A DNA stretch of 64,000 nt from Gemmatimonas sp. GTDB lineage: Bacteria; Gemmatimonadota; Gemmatimonadetes; Gemmatimonadales; Gemmatimonadaceae. Below are positions 29,951 through 55,398 of the stretch, in pieces. The notes under the pieces are model-generated. The model saw nothing but the letters and a program-made list of their open reading frames with translations. It was not told where the DNA came from and made no database searches. Position 1 is the stretch's first letter. The number at the start of each line of letters is the position of its first letter. The position numbers and the translations under genes were made by a program. The stretch covers positions 64,001 through 128,000 of the forward strand of contig JANNVQ010000029.1 of NCBI GenBank assembly GCA_031414535.1. The letters run 5' to 3'.

Positions 29951-32740
29951 TCAGTCGTCCAACTCGCGTGCGAGGCGCACGCCACGTTCGTCACGCACCA
30001 AGTTGCCAATCTCCGCTGCGATTGGCTCTACCACTTCCGCCACCGCCTGCACTCGCGGGATCGCGTGCTCCGCCGTCACGGGACGCGCCGAGCCTTCGGA
30101 GCGGAAATGGATGATCTGCTTCCACGTGCGCGTGATCTCGTCGCCGAAGACGAGCACGAGATCGCCCTGCCGCGCCATCGCCAGCGCCGCATCAACGGCC
30201 TGCTGCTCGTCGGGGATCTGTTGAATGCGCTCGGCCGGCACGCCGGCCGCGATCAACGCCTCGGCGAGCATCTGCGGCACTTCATCACCATCGCGGCCGC
30301 GCAAGCCGTCGTCGCGTCGGCAGATGTAGTGATCGAAGTGTCCCGCCGCTGCGCGCGCAATCTCCACGATGTCCTCGTCGCGTCGGTCGCCCGGAGCGGC
30401 GAGCACCACAATGCGCCGGCCCGACACATCGAGCCGCAGTGCCAGTTGGCACATCGCATCCACCGCGTGCGCGTTGTGGCCGTAGTCGAGAATCACCTTG
30501 AACGGATGCTCATTGAACACATTCGCGCGGCCCGGCGCTTGGAAGAACGTCGTGTCGAAGGTGCGCAGCCCCTGTCGGATCATCTCCAGCTTGATGCCCA
30601 TCGAGAATCCCATCGCCGCGGCCACCATCGCGTTCTGCACGTTGTGCATCGCGCGACCTTCCATCGTGGCGGGAATCAGGTGCGTCCACATCAGCGGAAT
30701 GTGCGCGCCCTTGTCGTAGATGGTGATCATGCTGCCGTTCACGCCGCTCTCCAACGAGACCGCGCGACCACCGGCGCGGATGTGCTCGCGCACAATCGCG
30801 TGCCCAGGATTCGTCGTCACGTAGCAGAGATGCTTGGCCTCGGTGTAGCTGGCCATCCGCAGCACGAGGGGATCGTCGGCGTTGAGCACGGCGGTGTCGC
30901 GCGCGACTTCAACCACGATACGCTTCACCTCGGCGAGTTCCTCAAGCGTGCCGATGCCCTTCAAGCCGAGATGGTCCGACTTCACGTTGAGCACCGCGCC
31001 AACGTCCACGTAACGCGTCCCCATGCCAGCGCGCAGTAATCCACCGCGCGCCACCTCGAGCACCGCCACATCAATCGTCGGGTCAGAAAGCACGATGCGC
31101 GTGGCCACGGGGCCAGTCATGTCGCCTTCCACCGTGCGCACGCCGTCGATGTACACGCCGTCGGTGGTGGTGAGGCCAGGTACGAACCCCGCCATCTTGC
31201 AGATGTGCGCGAGCATGCGCGCCGTCGTCGTCTTGCCGTTGGTGCCTGTGACCGCGGCCAGTGGCACTGTCGCCGGCGAGCCAGCAGGAAAGAGCATGTC
31301 AATCACTGGCCCAGCTACGTCGCGCGCCTTGCCCTCGCTCGGCGCGCTGTGCATCCGGAAGCCTGGCGCCGCATTCACCTCGCAGATGGCGCCACCGTGC
31401 TTGCGGTACGACTCGGTGATGTCCGGCGTGAGGAAATCCACGCCGCCCACGTCCAAGCCAATCGCCTTGATGGCGCGTTCGGCCATCTCGCGATTGTCGG
31501 GATGGATGATGTCCGTGACGTCCGTGGCCGTGCCACCGGTGGAGAGATTGCCCGTCGAGCGCAGGAATATCGTCTCACCCGCGGCGGGCACCGTAGCGGC
31601 GTCGTAGCCCTTGTCGGCGAGAAGTCGCAATGCTTGGTCATCAAGTGCGAGCCGCGTCAGCACCTTCTCGTGCCCTACACCGCGGCGCGGATCCGCATTC
31701 ACGATCTCCACCAATTCCGCGACGCTGTGCTTGCCATCGCCCACCACGTGACCCGGCGTTCGCTTGGTCGCCGCCACGAGTTCGCCATTCACCACCAAGA
31801 GGCGATGGTCATCGCCCGCCTGGAAGCTCTCGACAATCACGGAGCGCGAGACTTCCTGCGCCGCCTTGAACGCCACGCGCACCTGCTCATCAGTCGTCAG
31901 ATGAATCGCCACCGCGCGCCCGTGATTTCCATTGTATGGCTTGACCACCACCGGATACCCGATGCGTCGCGCGGCGCGTGCGGCGCTGTCTTCGCTCTGC
32001 ACGAGTTCCTGCTTGGGTACGGGCAACCCGAGTTGCCCGAGAATCTTATTGGTCTCTTCTTTGTCGCTCGCAAGTTCCACAGCGATATACGAGGTGCGCC
32101 CCGTAATCGTCGCTTGGATGCGCTGCTGGTGCCGTCCGTGTCCGAGCTGGATCAGTGACTGGCTATTGAGACGCATCCATGGGATGCCTCGGTCTTCTGC
32201 CGCGTGCACCAAGGACGCCGTGCTCGGCCCCAGCGCGCGACGCTGCGCAAAACGAATGAAACTGTCGCGCTGTGCGGTCCAGTCCCAATCGTCCGGCACG
32301 ATGCCCGCGGGTGTGACCTCTGCGGGCAGCAGCGAGGCCACAAGACGTAGCGCCAGTTCTCCCGCTTCAAGACCTTCATCGCGCTGTTCGTACTCGTACA
32401 CCACGAAGTACACGCCCTCAGTACCAGCCGTGCGCGTCTTGCCAAAGGTGACGGGGATGCCGGCGATGTTCTGTAGCTCGATGGCCACGTGTTCAATCAC
32501 GTGCCCGAGCCAGGTGCCTTCGTCCTCCGTCATGCGGCGCACGAATCCGCCGGGCTCACCGTACGAGCAGCCGTGCTCGCGGAGGCCGGGCAGGGCGGCG
32601 AGTAATCCGTCTATGAACGGCGCGCCTAGGCGACTCGTCGGCCACTGTTCCAGCGCGCCAAGATCGAGCGTCAGCCGGATGACGGGAAAGTGCGCGTAGA
32701 GCGAGGGGCCGACATAAACCGACCGTTCAAGGATTCGCAT
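29951..32740 (-). CDS. cphA: cyanophycin synthetase
   Basis: N domain GHVIEH, ATP-grasp KPYNGNHG / NLSTGG / EVNAAPGFRMH, Mur domain GTNGKTTT. Confidence 0.95.
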   Translation of the reverse strand: MRILERSVYVGPSLYAHFPVIRLTLDLGALEQWPTSRLGAPFIDGLLAALPGLREHGCSYGEPGGFVRRMTEDEGTWLGHVIEHVAIELQNIAGIPVTFGKTRTAGTEGVYFVVYEYEQRDEGLEAGELALRLVASLLPAEVTPAGIVPDDWDWTAQRDSFIRFAQRRALGPSTASLVHAAEDRGIPWMRLNSQSLIQLGHGRHQQRIQATITGRTSYIAVELASDKEETNKILGQLGLPVPKQELVQSEDSAARAARRIGYPVVVKPYNGNHGRAVAIHLTTDEQVRVAFKAAQEVSRSVIVESFQAGDDHRLLVVNGELVAATKRTPGHVVGDGKHSVAELVEIVNADPRRGVGHEKVLTRLALDDQALRLLADKGYDAATVPAAGETIFLRSTGNLSTGGTATDVTDIIHPDNREMAERAIKAIGLDVGGVDFLTPDITESYRKHGGAICEVNAAPGFRMHSAPSEGKARDVAGPVIDMLFPAGSPATVPLAAVTGTNGKTTTARMLAHICKMAGFVPGLTTTDGVYIDGVRTVEGDMTGPVATRIVLSDPTIDVAVLEVARGGLLRAGMGTRYVDVGAVLNVKSDHLGLKGIGTLEELAEVKRIVVEVARDTAVLNADDPLVLRMASYTEAKHLCYVTTNPGHAIVREHIRAGGRAVSLESGVNGSMITIYDKGAHIPLMWTHLIPATMEGRAMHNVQNAMVAAAMGFSMGIKLEMIRQGLRTFDTTFFQAPGRANVFNEHPFKVILDYGHNAHAVDAMCQLALRLDVSGRRIVVLAAPGDRRDEDIVEIARAAAGHFDHYICRRDDGLRGRDGDEVPQMLAEALIAAGVPAERIQQIPDEQQAVDAALAMARQGDLVLVFGDEITRTWKQIIHFRSEGSARPVTAEHAIPRVQAVAEVVEPIAAEIGNLVRDERGVRLARELDD

Positions 32741-32755
32741 TGCTTGAACTTGCTG

Positions 32756-33598
32756 CTAAGACTTGCTGACCGCGAGGTCGCCCGCCGAGGCGATGCGCGT
32801 GTGGAGGTTGAACGTGGTCCCTCGCACGAGCACGTGCATCGTCAATCCCAGCATCGCCACGGGGTCGTCCGCGCCTGCCCGGTCCATGGAAGAGAACTTC
32901 AGCTTTGAAGAGTCCACGATCGTGAGCGTCCCGCTGCCCTCTACTTCAACCGTTTGGTCGGGCGAGATGAACGCGGCCGTGTCCTCATCAATCCCGAGAC
33001 CGATTAGGAAGGGATTGAAGGCCAAGGCCGTGATCAGCCGTCCCAGCCGCCCGCGTTGCGTGAAGTGCTGATCAATCACCACGCGATTGGTGAGTCCAAG
33101 TCCGGGAGCGAGCGTCACAGAGCCTGCGTGCGGCGTGCGATTGTCATCGCCGAACGCAATCATGTGCTCGCTGAGGAAGCTCGCACCCGCGCTGGTGCCG
33201 GCGACGTGCCCGCCGTTCGCGTTGTGCTCGCGCAGGGCCTTGGCCACGGCGGTGCCACCCAAGGTGGTCGCGAGACGCATCTGGTTGCCGCCGGTGATGA
33301 ACACCCCATCACAGGCCTTGATGGCGGCCACACGACTCGGCTCGTCACCATCGCGGCGCGTATCGAAGTCCATCACTTCAACTTCGGCAGCCCCGAGATC
33401 CTTGAAGATGCTGCGGTAGCGATCGCCCGTGTCGGCCAGCTTCGAGGCCGTGGGAATCACCACGAGCTTGGCATCACGTCCGCCACAGAGCTGAACAAAG
33501 CGATCGAGGATGAGCGGATTGTTCTCCTTCTCCTCGCCACCGCCAATGGGGATGATCCATCCACGCGTCGCGCCGTCCGGCGTTTGGGACGGGCTCAC
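32756..33598 (-). CDS. cphB: cyanophycinase
   Basis: IGGGE, TGGNQ, GTSAGA, IDQHF.QRGRLGRL, GIDEDT. Confidence 0.93.
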   Translation of the reverse strand: MSPSQTPDGATRGWIIPIGGGEEKENNPLILDRFVQLCGGRDAKLVVIPTASKLADTGDRYRSIFKDLGAAEVEVMDFDTRRDGDEPSRVAAIKACDGVFITGGNQMRLATTLGGTAVAKALREHNANGGHVAGTSAGASFLSEHMIAFGDDNRTPHAGSVTLAPGLGLTNRVVIDQHFTQRGRLGRLITALAFNPFLIGLGIDEDTAAFISPDQTVEVEGSGTLTIVDSSKLKFSSMDRAGADDPVAMLGLTMHVLVRGTTFNLHTRIASAGDLAVSKS

Positions 33599-34776
33599 GA
33601 GCGACTCAGGGAAGTGGCGGACTCAAACTGTCCGCCGACGATGTGCGCGCCGTTGCGCAGGTGCCAGCGACCCATGGCCATCACGTCTTGCACTCCTCCC
33701 TTGTCGTCGAGCACCACGAGGTCCGCGTCGGCACCGAGTACGATCTCACCCTTGCGGGCCAATCGCAGCAGCTGCGCTGTATTACTGGTGAATGCCGGCA
33801 ACGCACGTTCGAGCGGTACGCCCAGCTCTAGCAGGCGCCGCAGCGTAAATGCCAACGCCCCCGGTTGCCCAACATCCATCTGCGTCACGCGGCCGTCCGC
33901 ATCGAAGGTCGGCAGGCAGCCGCCACCATCCGAACTGATGGTCACACGCTCCGCCGGTGCGCCAGCATCAAGAAAGCGCATCAGCGCCGCTTCCGCGCTC
34001 CAGGCATCTTCGCCGTCAGCGACGGGAAACGCGGTGATGTCCACCCACGAGCCCTGTTTCGCGAGCGCGATGGCTTCTTCGAACAGCGCCTTGCGACGGT
34101 TCACATGCGTGGGATTGAACACCCGCGGCGGCAATTCCGAGCCGGCGAGCGCTTCTCGGATGGGCTCGAGTCCCCGCACTCCATCGCCCACGTGTAGATG
34201 CACGAGTCCCGCCTTGCCCGTCATCAAGCCGCCCACGTGCGCCTCGCTCGCGAGCCGCAGCAGTTCATCGCGCGTCGGCTGGCTCGAGCGATGGTCGGAG
34301 ATGGCGGTCTTCACGCCGATGATGCACTCGATGTGCGCGATGTCGCCGCGCACGCTGCCGGTGATGGTGACCGGAGGGATGTGATAGCCTGCCGTCCAAT
34401 TCCACGCCGACAGTCCCTGGGCACGAAGCCCGTAGACCGCCGTCACCAACTCGCGCGGATGCCGCGTGGCGTCGTCGGTGCCGAGCAATCCCACGACGCT
34501 GGTCACGCCGCCGCGTGTGAACTGCGAGAGCGCGAGCGGAGGAACCTTGGACTCTGCGCCCGACTCGCCGCCGCCGCCGGTGATGTGGACGTGCGGATCA
34601 ATCAGTCCCGGGATGACGCGCCGGCCGCCAAGGTCTGTGGTCGTGACGTTGAGACCCGAGGGGAGATCTGGGCGCGCGTTCCCCATCCAGACGATGCGAT
34701 CACCCGCCAGCAGGATGTGCTGGATGCCCCGTTTGGCGGGGGCGTAGATGTTGGCGTTGAGGAGCAAGGAAAGCAT
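33595..34776 (-). CDS. iadA: beta-aspartyl (isoaspartyl) dipeptidase
   Basis: DPHVHITGGGGE, GLLGTD, AISDHRSSQP, PTHVNR, SSDGGG. Confidence 0.93.
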   Translation of the reverse strand: MLSLLLNANIYAPAKRGIQHILLAGDRIVWMGNARPDLPSGLNVTTTDLGGRRVIPGLIDPHVHITGGGGESGAESKVPPLALSQFTRGGVTSVVGLLGTDDATRHPRELVTAVYGLRAQGLSAWNWTAGYHIPPVTITGSVRGDIAHIECIIGVKTAISDHRSSQPTRDELLRLASEAHVGGLMTGKAGLVHLHVGDGVRGLEPIREALAGSELPPRVFNPTHVNRRKALFEEAIALAKQGSWVDITAFPVADGEDAWSAEAALMRFLDAGAPAERVTISSDGGGCLPTFDADGRVTQMDVGQPGALAFTLRRLLELGVPLERALPAFTSNTAQLLRLARKGEIVLGADADLVVLDDKGGVQDVMAMGRWHLRNGAHIVGGQFESATSLSRS

Positions 34777-34794
34777 TGCAACAAAAGTAACTGG

Positions 34795-34877
34795 AAGAGC
34801 GAGGAGCGAAGAGCGACAACGGAAAAGCGAAGTAGTGAAGAGCGAGGGGAGAAGAACAGAAGGGAGGAAGGGGAAGA
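34795..34877. repeat. left arm of inverted repeat around four-helix-bundle gene (purine-rich GAAGAGC heptamers)
   Basis: Matches reverse complement of 35307-35388 at 73 of 83 columns by manual alignment. Confidence 0.92.
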
Positions 34878-34882
34878 GTGAA

Positions 34883-35245
34883 TTAATGGCCGGTGGCGCG
34901 GCGGATGCATGTCACGCAGATGGCGATCAGCTCGTTGCATTCCGCGGCTAAGGCGCGTACTTCGGCGGGGCGGAAGCCGGCGCTCTCGGCCATTTGGAGC
35001 CAGGCCAGGGACTCGCGCAGTTCCTTTACACAGATCTTGAGCTTGTTCACATAGTCCCGCGTGGAGATTGCCTCCTTCGCCTCCGCGTAATTCGCCGCTG
35101 GAGACGTCGCCGAGCGGGCAAGCTGCCGGAAAATGTTCTCTAACGCGAAGTCTCGCGGCGCCCGCCGAATCAGCGCACAAGTCCGCCCCCCAAACAAGAC
35201 CAGCCGCTCCGCTAAAGGAACCCCTCTACGCCCATTATTGCTCAT
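34883..35245 (-). CDS. four helix bundle protein (23S rRNA IVP / bAvd-like)
   Basis: RQLARSATSPAANYAEA, DYVNKLKICVKELRESLAWL, NELIAI; start 35245 or 35260. Confidence 0.88.
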   Translation of the reverse strand: MSNNGRRGVPLAERLVLFGGRTCALIRRAPRDFALENIFRQLARSATSPAANYAEAKEAISTRDYVNKLKICVKELRESLAWLQMAESAGFRPAEVRALAAECNELIAICVTCIRRATGH

Positions 35246-35306
35246 CCATGGAGTGTGCATCAACACGCGTAAATTCCATCGCCGAGCCATCCCCACTCGT
35301 TCCATT

Positions 35307-35388
35307 TCTTCCCCTTCATTCCTTCTTCCCTTCACCCCTCGCTCTTCAATACTTCGCTCTTCCATTTCGCTCTTCGCTCCTCGCTCTT
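35307..35388. repeat. right arm of inverted repeat (pyrimidine-rich GCTCTTC heptamers)
   Basis: Outer 22 bp perfectly complementary to 34795-34816. Confidence 0.92.
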
Positions 35389-35400
35389 TAGCTTTCGGCC

Positions 35401-36075
35401 ATGGTTAGCATCCTAGACATCATCGGCCCCGTCATGGTCGGTCCGTCCTCAAGCCACACGGCCGGCGCTTGCCGCCTCGGCCTGGTCGCACGCGACCTCG
35501 TGGCCGGCACGCCGGAGTCAGCGCTCATCGAGCTCCACGGCTCCTTCGCCCGCACCGGCGAAGGTCACGGCACCGACAAGGCCATCGTCGGCGGCCTCCT
35601 CGGCTTCCGCCCCGACGATGAACGCCTCCGCGATGCACTCGTCATCATGGAGAAGGAAGCGCTCCCTTGGCGCTTCGAGAAAACCACGCTTGGTGACGAG
35701 CCCGAGGTGCACCCCAACACCGTGCGCATCACCGTCACGCGTCAGCATCGTCATCACGTCATGCTCGGTGCCTCCCTCGGCGCCGGTCGCATCAAGGTCT
35801 CGCAGATTGACGGCTATCCGGTGGAAGTGGATGGCTCGCATCACACCATCGTGATGGTCGCCGAGGACGTGAAGGGCAGTGTGGCGCGCATCGCGACAAT
35901 GCTCAGCGAGGGTGGCGTGAACATCGCGACGCTGCGGCTCAGTAGAAAGCATCGCGGCGGTGACGCATTCATGGTGATTGAAGTGGACGAGCGGCCCGAA
36001 GACTCCGTGGGCGCTGCACTCAAGGAGCTGTCGTGGGTGAAGTGGGCGCACCGCATTGATAAGGTTGGTGGCTGA
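35401..36075 (+). CDS. sdaAB: L-serine dehydratase beta subunit with ACT domain
   Basis: GPVMVGPSSSHTAG, GSFARTGEGHGTD, HPNT. Confidence 0.93.
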   Translation: MVSILDIIGPVMVGPSSSHTAGACRLGLVARDLVAGTPESALIELHGSFARTGEGHGTDKAIVGGLLGFRPDDERLRDALVIMEKEALPWRFEKTTLGDEPEVHPNTVRITVTRQHRHHVMLGASLGAGRIKVSQIDGYPVEVDGSHHTIVMVAEDVKGSVARIATMLSEGGVNIATLRLSRKHRGGDAFMVIEVDERPEDSVGAALKELSWVKWAHRIDKVGG

Positions 36076-42297: not shown

Positions 42298-42379
42298 GGT
42301 GGGATACCCAAGTGGCCAACGGGAGCAGACTGTAAATCTGCCGGCATTGCCTTCGAAGGTTCGAATCCTTCTCCCACCA
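42298..42379 (+). tRNA. tRNA-Tyr(GTA)
   Basis: GGTGGGA/TCCCACC stem, gcaga-ctgtaaa-tctgc arm, long variable arm. Confidence 0.95.
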
Positions 42380-42388
42380 TAGAACAGC

Positions 42389-42473
42389 GGAAGAGCGAAG
42401 AGCGACAAGGGAAGAGCGAAGAGGGGAAGAGCGAGAAGGAGAAGGGGGAAGGGTAGAAATAGAAGTGAGAAGA
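42389..42473 (+). repeat. purine-rich GAAGAGC heptamer array in tRNA spacer
   Basis: gaagagc gaagagc gacaagg gaagagc gaagagg ggaagagc... Confidence 0.85.
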
Positions 42474-42474
42474 C

Positions 42475-42547
42475 GCGGGAGTAGCTCAGCTGGTAGAGCG
42501 CAAGCCTTCCAAGCTTGATGTCGCGGGTTCGAGCCCCGTCTCCCGCT
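42475..42547 (+). tRNA. tRNA-Gly(TCC)
   Basis: GCGGGAG/CTCCCGC stem, caagc-cttccaa-gcttg arm. Confidence 0.95.
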
Positions 42548-42550
42548 CTG

Positions 42551-55269: not shown

Positions 55270-55275
55270 GAACAA

Positions 55276-55398
55276 GACGGATGACGGATGACGGACGCCA
55301 AGGGCGGGAAGAGCGAGAGCTCGACCCGCCCTTGGCGCGTTCTTGGGTATCCGTCATCCGTCATCCGTCATGCGTCATGCGTCTTCCGTCTTCCGTCC
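55276..55398. repeat. GC hairpin nested in GACGGAT heptamer arms after rpoC
   Basis: gacggat x3; cgccaagggcggg / cccgcccttggcg; about seven catccgt-type units. Confidence 0.9.

Follow-up and report, generated by a model that had tools for sequence, protein, structure and literature searches.

We analysed a stretch of 64,000 nucleotides from Gemmatimonas sp. (assembly GCA_031414535.1, contig JANNVQ010000029.1, positions 64,001 to 128,000 of the forward strand), called the window in the following. It contains a block of 594 bp (34795..35388), which sits between iadA and sdaAB, outside any rRNA gene, and is composed of a gene for a four-helix-bundle (4HB) protein and two long inverted arms, one on each side of the gene. 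Related genes are bracketed by such arms in other genomes as well, and arms of the same kind are dispersed over the genome of the window without the gene. This genome, G000 (3.70 Mb in 58 contigs, 98.4% complete), was compared with a genus sample of 55 Gemmatimonas genomes, to which the other G numbers refer; C numbers stand for contigs of G000. The coordinates of the features are compiled in Table 1. The 4HB gene is oriented antisense to sdaAB. A promoter and terminator scan of the locus yielded one weak promoter-like site overlapping the start of the open reading frame (ORF) and no terminator. Among the ORFs of the window no transposase was found inside the block and no recombinase inside or beside it. 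The flanks of 25 copies, read by eye, displayed no target-site duplication at the cassette or the other copies, and no conserved target motif was seen at the outer ends of the arms in the flanks of the copies inspected in the same way. The first-pass annotation of the block, made from its letters alone, had likewise noted the absence of a visible transposase, recombinase or target-site duplication.

Realignment of the two arms (global alignment, right arm reverse-complemented) gave 73 identical columns of 83, the remainder being 9 mismatches and 1 gap, and a perfect match over the outer 22 bp (34795-34816 against 35367-35388, 22/22), exactly as annotated before. An inverted-repeat search also reported a 60-nt stretch at 85% between the arms. 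On the plus strand the purine content is 0.88 for the left and 0.13 for the right arm. The self-similarity of the arms peaks at a shift of 7 (shifts 3-12 compared) but amounts to only 0.51-0.53; the earlier description as degenerate heptamers is therefore a fair one. A chance origin of the match between the arms is excluded, because the blastn comparison of arm versus arm in the 3.7-Mb genome has an E-value of 3.7e-23 and folding of the 621-nt region gives z-scores of -11.8 for the minus and -11.2 for the plus strand (20 shuffles each), far beyond chance. For the arm duplex -135 to -142 kcal/mol were predicted. Four of the mismatches turn into G-U pairs if the minus strand is taken as RNA, compared to one for the plus strand. 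This count from the first-pass annotation was correct; the hint of selection on RNA pairing that had been drawn from it did not hold, as a 4:1 asymmetry is too small to carry meaning. For 15 gene-less hairpins of the same repeat family, described below, the RNA folding energy favoured the plus strand in 6 and the minus strand in 9 cases, hence no consistent strand preference was found.

Table 1. The 594-bp block, its neighbouring genes and further members of the two heptamer repeat families in the window.
Feature	Position	Strand	Remarks
iadA	start ATG 34776	-	TIGR01975 isoaspartyl dipeptidase, E 2.7e-110; divergent neighbour
Spacer	34777..34794	.	18 nt, from the iadA start codon (ATG 34776, minus strand) to the outer end of the left arm
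Left arm	34795..34877	.	purine-rich on the + strand; degenerate GARGAGC-type 7-mers; of the two ends of the family, the outer one (34795) is conserved
4HB gene	34883..35245	-	120 aa from the probable start ATG 35245; longest open frame extends to 35365, inside the arm; intact
Right arm	35307..35388	.	pyrimidine-rich on the + strand; inverted copy of the left arm; family boundary exactly 35388
Spacer TAGCTTTCGGCC	35389..35400	+	12 nt, right arm to sdaAB ATG; contains TAGCTT box
sdaAB	35401..36075	+	L-serine ammonia-lyase beta subunit, TIGR00719 E 8e-58; gene with which the cassette stays across the genus
Solo purine arm of the window's family	42390..42444	+	55 nt, 85% to arm positions 7-60; between tRNA-Tyr (42298-42379) and tRNA-Gly (42475-42548)
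Gene-less hairpin of the GACGGAW family	55274..55383	.	arms round a GC-rich stem; orthologous site holds other repeat types in relatives

The ORF between the arms matched the profiles TIGR02436 (E 4.4e-19, 68.7 bits, cut-off 24) and PF05635 (E 1.5e-10, 41.7 bits, cut-off 33.8), which confirmed the 4HB protein of about 120 aa proposed before. A 120-aa product starting at ATG 35245 is probable, because similarity to relatives begins at about residue 11 counted from this codon. An AlphaFold2 model based on 20 homologues (mean pLDDT 93.8) consists of four long helices (residues 11-27, 33-57, 62-88 and 94-118). Compared with solved structures by Foldseek, this predicted model adopts the up-down four-helix-bundle fold of BT_0352 (2rld, TM 0.80), Xcc0516 (2gsc, 0.78-0.80) and Avd (4dwl, 0.74). 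The 2rld structure contains 5 chains, and a homopentameric ring is known for the relative S23p of Xcc according to the accessible text of PMC4990558. Versus nine orthologues dN/dS ranged from 0.10 to 0.24 at a dS of 0.9-1.9, which is saturated; these ratios argue that the gene encodes a protein kept by purifying selection. The TIGR02436/PF05635 family was found in 99 of 151 sampled genomes of the phylum with up to 13 copies each.

The block had been regarded as a self-contained cassette. This view had to be given up, since its arm is a member of a dispersed family of G000. Using the left arm as blastn query, 43 matches were obtained in the 3.7-Mb genome (42 in a separate run). They resolve into 16 close inverted pairs: one is the cassette, and the other 15 are gene-less hairpins measuring 155-225 bp, with 1-76 nt in the loop. 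Besides these about 9 solo arms exist, two of them with a decayed partner. The purine arm comes first in every pair. All 43 matches start at arm position 12 or before, i.e., at the outer end, and their ends range from position 37 to 83; the copies were therefore shortened only at the inner end. At the other boundary, contigs of other copies part from the window sequence exactly behind 35388 (4-9 loose ends per run in the contigs of four DNA runs). The 83-nt arm has a fixed order of variant 7-mers unlike a simple array, and this internal order allows the gene-less copies to be counted as copies of the cassette arm and not as chance arrays. Almost all gene-less long hairpins (14/15) abut the 3' end of a called gene within 25 nt, based on crude ORF calls. 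Reading the flanks and loops of the gene-less copies revealed no remnant of the 4HB gene. The solo arm at 42390-42444 is located inside a tRNA cluster and is presumably transcribed with the tRNAs.

The only other TIGR02436 gene of G000 is found on C27 between hppA and ychF, bracketed by a 27-nt inverted repeat of GACGGAA/GACGGAT units. GACGGAW is at the same time the commonest heptamer of G000: period-7 arrays (217, versus 88 of period 6 and 48 of period 8) consist in 189 cases of this unit or close variants (168 + 13 + 8). At gaps of up to 150 nt the arrays form 40 purine-then-pyrimidine pairs and 0 in the reverse order, while at gene-sized gaps (301-2500 nt) the reverse, pyrimidine-first order is the commoner one (12 vs 5). 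From this gap-dependent order it follows that ordinary genes are bracketed in the polarity pyrimidine...purine and that the 4HB genes sit in the opposite, 'spacer' polarity. About 13-15 of the 40 GACGGAW hairpins enclose a GC-rich stem followed by a T run, as judged by eye, and the local terminator varies from site to site; the arms were therefore added later, round pre-existing local terminators. The loop of one GACGGAW hairpin (C38:24300-24432) contains a tandem hexamer array (CAACGG about 7 times). At C47:4003-4633 GACGGAW arrays in cassette polarity surround an ORF of about 150 aa, membrane-protein-like and not 4HB; either the bracket is due to chance or the cassette here holds a different cargo.

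The gene-in-arms layout was then followed beyond G000, with a flanking inverted repeat accepted at E < 0.01 in the genus and at 28 bits or more in the phylum and other-phyla sets. The 4HB family occurs in 45 of the 55 genomes of the genus, and 45/51 genus loci, then 16/18 in a further set, have a flanking inverted repeat. These arms measure 12-116 nt, their units vary by species (AGATGTR, GACKTGA, CAGGTRT, GAGTYGT, GATGCGG, GGAGCGA), and the G- or purine-rich arm comes first at all genus loci with arms. In the phylum sample, each locus of which stems from a different genome, 26/29 loci carry a flanking inverted repeat compared to 0/52 controls at positions shifted by 1 kb; one contig-end locus was dropped. 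Outside the phylum 79 loci were found with the protein of the window, in Verrucomicrobiota, Planctomycetota, Bacteroidota, Ignavibacteriota and others, including two 'uncultured Gemmatimonas sp.'; two contig-end loci were dropped. A flanking inverted repeat was present at 44 of the remaining 77 versus 0/141 controls. The best period of these 44 pairs of arms is 7 in 39 cases, and the left arm has G > C in 39 and G < C in 4 cases. Judged by these genome comparisons, the gene-in-arms layout is general. The first-pass annotation had named homologues generally lacking such arms as the outcome that would speak against it; arms accompany 26/29 of them in the phylum and 44/77 elsewhere. Even the sequence of the arm recurs. 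With 1 mismatch allowed, its 12-mer CGAACAAGGAAT was found in the right orientation upstream of 10/77 and downstream of 13/77 other-phyla loci, compared to 4/154 in the wrong orientation, with recurrences in Verrucomicrobiota, Planctomycetota, Bacteroidota and Ignavibacteriota. The sequence of the arms seems to accompany this subfamily of the protein from one phylum to another.

Within the genus, two classes of 4HB genes are informative about the connection of gene and arms. The class-1 gene is syntenic (hppA-4HB-ychF) in 29/30 loci, and its arm unit differs even among close relatives. Genomes that are sisters by flank DNA (G050/G010, G045/G007, G012/G000; support 98-100) possess different arm units together with 4HB proteins in different clades. 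Class-2 cassettes, the type of the window, all retain outer units of GGAGCGA type despite the dS of 0.9-1.9. At the level of sequence these comparisons show that gene and arms are inherited as one unit. Counting arm-type changes on trees of the class-1 4HB genes and their flanks gave 9 versus 10 changes; with as many as 10 types among 14 rows this count has no power, and of the trees only the three well-supported conflicts named above were used. The trees do not include 15 of the 29 syntenic loci, for which a typed arm or complete flanks were missing.

Next to the inheritance of the cassette itself, the dispersed repeats were compared with the cassette type carried, using counts of three-unit (x3) patterns across the 55 genus genomes. 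GACKTGA x3 was found 172, 83, 53 and 17 times in the four genomes with such class-1 arms, 3 times and once in two others, and 0 times in 49. AGATGTR x3 occurred 26 and 17 times in two genomes with such arms and at most 12 times elsewhere. GARGAGC x3 was present in 8/11 carriers of the class-2 gene versus 2/44 other genomes, where the reversed-unit control is not independent, as the reversed unit is a rotation of the unit itself. GACGGAW x3 reached 213 matches in G000 and 91 in G024, both with such arms. The dispersed repeat type thus mostly tracks the cassette type carried, with GACGGAW as a clear exception that is taken up below. In G067 a reversed control pattern, WAGGCAG x3, has 53 matches, in this genome alone, and one 4HB cassette of G067 has GGCAGAT-type arms; GGCAGAT is a further heptamer family going with a cassette.

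Five orthologous intergenic sites were compared between species. At three of them (window 55274-55383, C2:11880 and C40a) the repeat types differ by species, and each type is present in that species' own cassettes. At 55274-55383 the arms consist of GACGGAT in G000 and of GACKTGA in G004 and G012, in keeping with the cassettes of the latter two; G023 combines one arm of either type, a long hairpin of the genome's own class-3 type stands in G017, and G070 is without any. Site C40a holds the arm type of the window in G000 and a hairpin like its own class-3 cassette arms in G070. At site C8 ordinary terminators of GC stem and T run are found in G004 and G060 and a long hairpin in G000, G003 and G070, and at C14:294060 arms exist in G000 only. 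These sites show that the repeat type of an orthologous intergenic site differs between species; among the relatives, fixed sites have had their repeat type replaced by the one that matches the cassette of the genome.

Are the heptamer arrays simply boundary elements of the host, acting as terminator, insulator or G-rich element as in Xanthomonas, between which selfish 4HB ORFs land or survive without any recognition? Dispersed heptamers have been described independently of 4HB genes, as GGGAATC of Xanthomonas and GGGGA(C/T)T of Nostoc (Rehm et al., 2015, PMC4692102) and as TAACTGA of Beggiatoaceae (PMC4679880). They are intergenic near ORF ends with the G-rich strand on the coding side downstream and on the non-coding side upstream of ORFs, and Xanthomonas has 70-75 convergent pairs able to form stem-loops (PMC4692102). 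The arrays of G000 resemble them in their position near ORF ends and in their convergent pairs (40 purine-first vs 0), and follow the same strand rule; the arm of the window, in contrast, is an 83-nt unit with ordered 7-mer variants and no simple array. In the accessible text of both PMC4692102 and PMC4679880 the 4HB or S23p family is not mentioned ('S23', '23S' and 'helix bundle' with 0 occurrences each). A mere passenger gene would also agree with the abundance of GACGGAW arrays in three genomes without a matching cassette and with the same-polarity arrays that bracket 4 ordinary gene-sized spacers in G000. Nevertheless, only about 56 spacers of G000 have paired arms, yet both 4HB genes are found in one, each of a different family. 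Moreover, the arm type goes with the 4HB clade and not with the flank phylogeny, GACKTGA arrays are almost confined to the four genomes with GACKTGA cassettes, and flanking inverted repeats accompany 44/77 loci of other phyla versus 0/141 controls. We consider a passenger gene in host repeats distinctly unlikely.

The history of the cassette was reconstructed upstream of sdaAB. As left neighbour iadA is found in G000 only, so that the proposed comparison of the iadA-sdaAB interval with an empty site was not feasible for the interval as such; the upstream side of sdaAB, compared instead, provides both empty (G056) and filled (G042) sites. In 30/30 loci, with or without cassette, the sdaAB ATG is preceded at a distance of 6-11 nt by a TANNTT-like box (by eye), in most cases TAGCTT, which overlaps the uvrA stop codon in seven genomes; it is probably the -10 box of a leaderless or short-leader mRNA. 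The class-2 cassette abuts this box in 8 genomes (G000, G066, G007, G018, G042, G049, G012, G069). The orthologous class-2 genes share 68-80% identity, the arms are of GGAGCGA type, and the gene of G018 carries a stop codon. In a DNA tree of sdaAB and sdaAA (31 rows, 6 with cassette) cassette presence needs 6 changes, at least 4 of them forced by well-supported branches, and it is not clustered (6 changes vs a shuffled mean of 5.6). The close sisters G042 (filled) and G056 (empty) have both flanking genes in common. The empty site of G056 reads TAG-GGAGCACTCCGC-TAGCTT and resembles the outermost bases of both arms joined, by eye and possibly by chance. In G010 about 30 nt of the right arm are left at sdaAB and the gene is gone. 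The changes on the tree, the empty site and the arm remnant speak for an old resident cassette that was repeatedly deleted, rather than for fresh insertions. In two genomes the class-2 cassette is located elsewhere, in the case of G062 between sucC and a UPF0182 gene and in that of G023 next to ftsK, and its left neighbours vary, which indicates that relocation or rearrangement at the arms happens. The earlier suggestion of a mobile element is thereby weakly supported by the two other contexts; residence mostly at sdaAB, repeated loss and the missing target-site duplication stand against it.

A transposon with terminal inverted repeats would explain part of these data. A transposase encoded elsewhere would recognise the arms, the gene-less hairpins would be copies like MITEs (miniature inverted-repeat transposable elements), and the 4HB gene would be cargo. 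This idea agrees with the inverted ends, of which the outer 22 bp are conserved, with gene-less copies that are shortened internally and with a class-2 cassette in three genus contexts (upstream of sdaAB, at sucC / the UPF0182 gene, beside ftsK), and as in MITEs short non-coding palindromic copies have their ends in common with one longer gene-bearing copy. Unlike MITEs, the family displays no target-site duplication at any copy (by eye) and has no transposase; the Y1 (RAYT / IS200-type) transposase profile PF01797 was without match in G000. Solo arms and hybrid pairs of two families occur. The arms bracket local terminators, and because these terminator hairpins differ between sites, the paired element did not move as a block. 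Finally, the arm unit varies at a fixed syntenic locus. A transposon is therefore a very improbable explanation.

Even less credible, indeed close to negligible, is an invertible, phase-variable segment, in which the gene would be turned round by recombination of the two arms. Inverted repeats, if long, can support inversion, and an invertible segment had been offered as an option by the first-pass annotation. There is no recombinase gene in or beside the block, and the arms are symmetric, so a flip would change nothing obvious. In the probable source run, the one long contig covers 33600-35555 in the orientation of the window without any difference. The contigs contained no flipped joint of 34794 to the 35306 side. 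A single 'opposite strands' joint (35310/35350, one contig) lies inside the arm and is expected from a gene-less hairpin elsewhere. Single contigs 'skip' 455-519 nt between the arms; excision was considered as the cause and rejected, since gene-less hairpins at other loci would give such skips.

The block also corresponds in its layout, a PF05635 ORF in the loop of a long 7-mer stem, to the intervening sequences (IVS) of rRNA, and the first-pass annotation of an IVS-like element outside an rRNA gene is supported in this point. The 23S rRNA IVS of Coxiella burnetii and Leptospira likewise have no transposase and carry, in the loop of an inverted-repeat stem, an ORF that belongs to the same family (Warrier et al., 2016; Ralph and McClelland, 1993, as cited there). 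According to the accessible text of PMC4990558, the S23p IVS of C. burnetii has 28-bp terminal inverted repeats with GACAGAT x3 + GACAGAA in the 5' arm, tandem heptamers comparable to those of the cassette arms; its ORF is reported as decaying and untranslated (Warrier et al., 2016), and cleavage of the stem by RNase III is the only mechanism shown. The cassette differs by its arms of 83 bp instead of 28 bp, by the dispersal of the arm with gene-less and solo copies, and by a gene under purifying selection instead of a decaying one. It is not inserted in a 23S rRNA gene (helix 25 or 45), as the position of the C27 gene between hppA and ychF illustrates for the second cassette, and its organism has no detectable RNase III gene.

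No RNase III gene was found in G000 with the profiles PF14622 and TIGR02191, nor with TIGR02191 in the genus (0/55), in searches that give matches in 8-9/14 control genomes. Four RNase III proteins of the same phylum, used in tblastn searches of G000, yielded a best E-value of 0.28. In the phylum TIGR02191 was present in 0/104 genomes of the families f1-f8 versus 15/16 in f9-f12. The absence of a canonical RNase III looks like a class-wide loss in Gemmatimonadota and prompts the question by what route these bacteria process their rRNA precursors and long hairpins. Because neither G000 nor the 55 genus genomes have a recognisable gene for the enzyme, excision by RNase III as in rRNA intervening sequences, part of the first-pass annotation, is unsupported here. 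The lineage seems to lack the enzyme, and this apparent absence separates the cassette layout from the sole mechanism shown for its rRNA counterpart.

What would remain of the comparison with IVS is a stem that acts only in cis: the arms would pair at their own locus and the stem would be cut or insulate a selfish ORF, and the gene-less copies would be decayed or deleted cassettes unlinked to the protein. The identical architecture of the Coxiella IVS, heptamers included, and the very stable predicted stem (z about -11 to -12) are in agreement with this view. Complementarity is kept at the syntenic class-1 locus though the unit differs by species, and the apparently deleted site of G056 retains GGAGC-A-CTCC (by eye) where G042 has the cassette. 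Against such a stem argue, apart from the missing RNase III, further observations. With the 4HB gene antisense to sdaAB and the arm no more than 12 nt away from the sdaAB ATG, it is not assured that both arms are on one transcript. Gene-less copies are free of gene remnants, and several enclose local terminator-like hairpins. Solo arms exist, as do hybrids of two families. The repeat types at fixed sites change to match the resident cassette. Taking both sides into account, we regard a stem acting only in cis as rather unlikely, although not to be dismissed lightly.

Our preference, held tentatively and with a confidence just short of even, is that the 594-bp block represents a resident repeat-plus-reader cassette, the protein of which likely acts in trans as sequence-specific binder of the dispersed arms. 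By analogy to its relatives Avd and Xcc0516 the 4HB protein would be a ring-forming nucleic-acid binder with its own arm repeat, either DNA or RNA, as the target. Such binding would underlie the spread, replacement or upkeep of arms at gene ends. The paired arms would fold into long stems at transcript ends, at places where relatives have ordinary terminator hairpins. Copying of the arm starting at the outer end would fit the constant outer end, the truncation at the inner end only and the fixed polarity.

A close organisational parallel of a repeat-plus-reader cassette is the REPIN/RAYT system, in which a low-copy gene is flanked by inverted repeat copies, gene-less inverted doublets are scattered intergenically, and the repeat type goes with the gene type. 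G000 possesses such gene-less inverted doublets of the flanking repeat, 15 pairs of the window's arm and 40 GACGGAW pairs. Unlike in REPIN/RAYT, the flanked gene encodes a PF05635 4HB protein without known nuclease motifs and not a Y1 (HUH) transposase, and the repeats are heptamer-built with strong purine/pyrimidine strand asymmetry.

Several observations weigh against the proposed reader function. For the 4HB protein no catalytic activity is known, nor is there a link to any copying enzyme. GACGGAW x3 was also found 145 times in G023, 94 times in G017 and 48 times in G004, the class-1 arms of which are GACKTGA. Three genomes with the class-2 gene are without a GARGAGC x3 match, and conversely G070 and G003 have window-type hairpins with no class-2 gene found. 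For class-2 gene versus GARGAGC arrays an independent-pairs test comprised 4 pairs, 3 in the same direction, 0 opposite and 1 without difference (p 0.25), and is underpowered; the raw association of 7/8 vs 1/23 is uncorrected for kinship. In the 16 paired elements the arm identity within pairs is 0.64 versus 0.63 between loci, hence there is no locus-specific compensation. Four further purine-first pairs, the one at C47:4003-4633 among them, bracket ordinary genes in G000, and bracketing alone is not specific to 4HB genes in such an array-rich genome.

A more far-reaching version, in which 4HB proteins are specificity subunits of a repeat-writing system, is improbable. An Avd-like ring would bind the pyrimidine arm at the 3' end of the cassette transcript, or the arm DNA. 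Ring and polymerase would then copy the arm, from the outer end inward, onto DNA 3' ends at gene boundaries, and the intergenic hairpins would be rewritten genome-wide to the type of the resident cassette. If true, this would explain the constant outer end, the inner truncation, the purine-first polarity, the solo and hybrid arms and the missing target-site duplications, and beyond that the excess of 7-base repeats in bacterial genomes. Avd of the diversity-generating retroelements (PDB 4dwl, 8ub7) is a small ring-forming nucleic-acid-binding cofactor (accessible text of PMC10053308), and its fold is that of the modelled 4HB protein (TM 0.74 to 4dwl). In contrast to Avd, the cassette gene has no reverse transcriptase beside it, its neighbours being iadA and sdaAB; template/variable repeats were not searched for. 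The sole reverse transcriptase of G000 is encoded on another contig (C9:45658-46524, minus strand, 288 aa, RVT_1 E 6e-14); this enzyme, beside a 100-aa HTH_3 gene, looks like a retron or defence-type enzyme, and no link between it and the cassettes was seen.

A full-text search, with subscription journals outside its coverage, retrieved no publication that links the 4HB family to dispersed heptamer repeats or describes the cassette outside rRNA; the Coxiella paper (PMC4990558) in its accessible text mentions the heptamers of the IVS and not the wider pattern. The PF05635/TIGR02436 family is very large, and no function is known for it except in diversity-generating retroelements. Heptamer repeats for their part represent an old unexplained excess in bacterial genomes (Xanthomonas, Nostoc, Beggiatoaceae). 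The window is an unusually clear case linking the two, and if the protein reads its repeat, the puzzle of the orphan family and that of the heptamers both become testable. As to the left side of the locus, the neighbours at 29951-34776 resemble a cyanophycin cluster, with ORFs of 929 aa and 280 aa (by eye synthetase and cyanophycinase) followed by iadA, and this cyanophycin-like block adjoins the cassette in G000 only.

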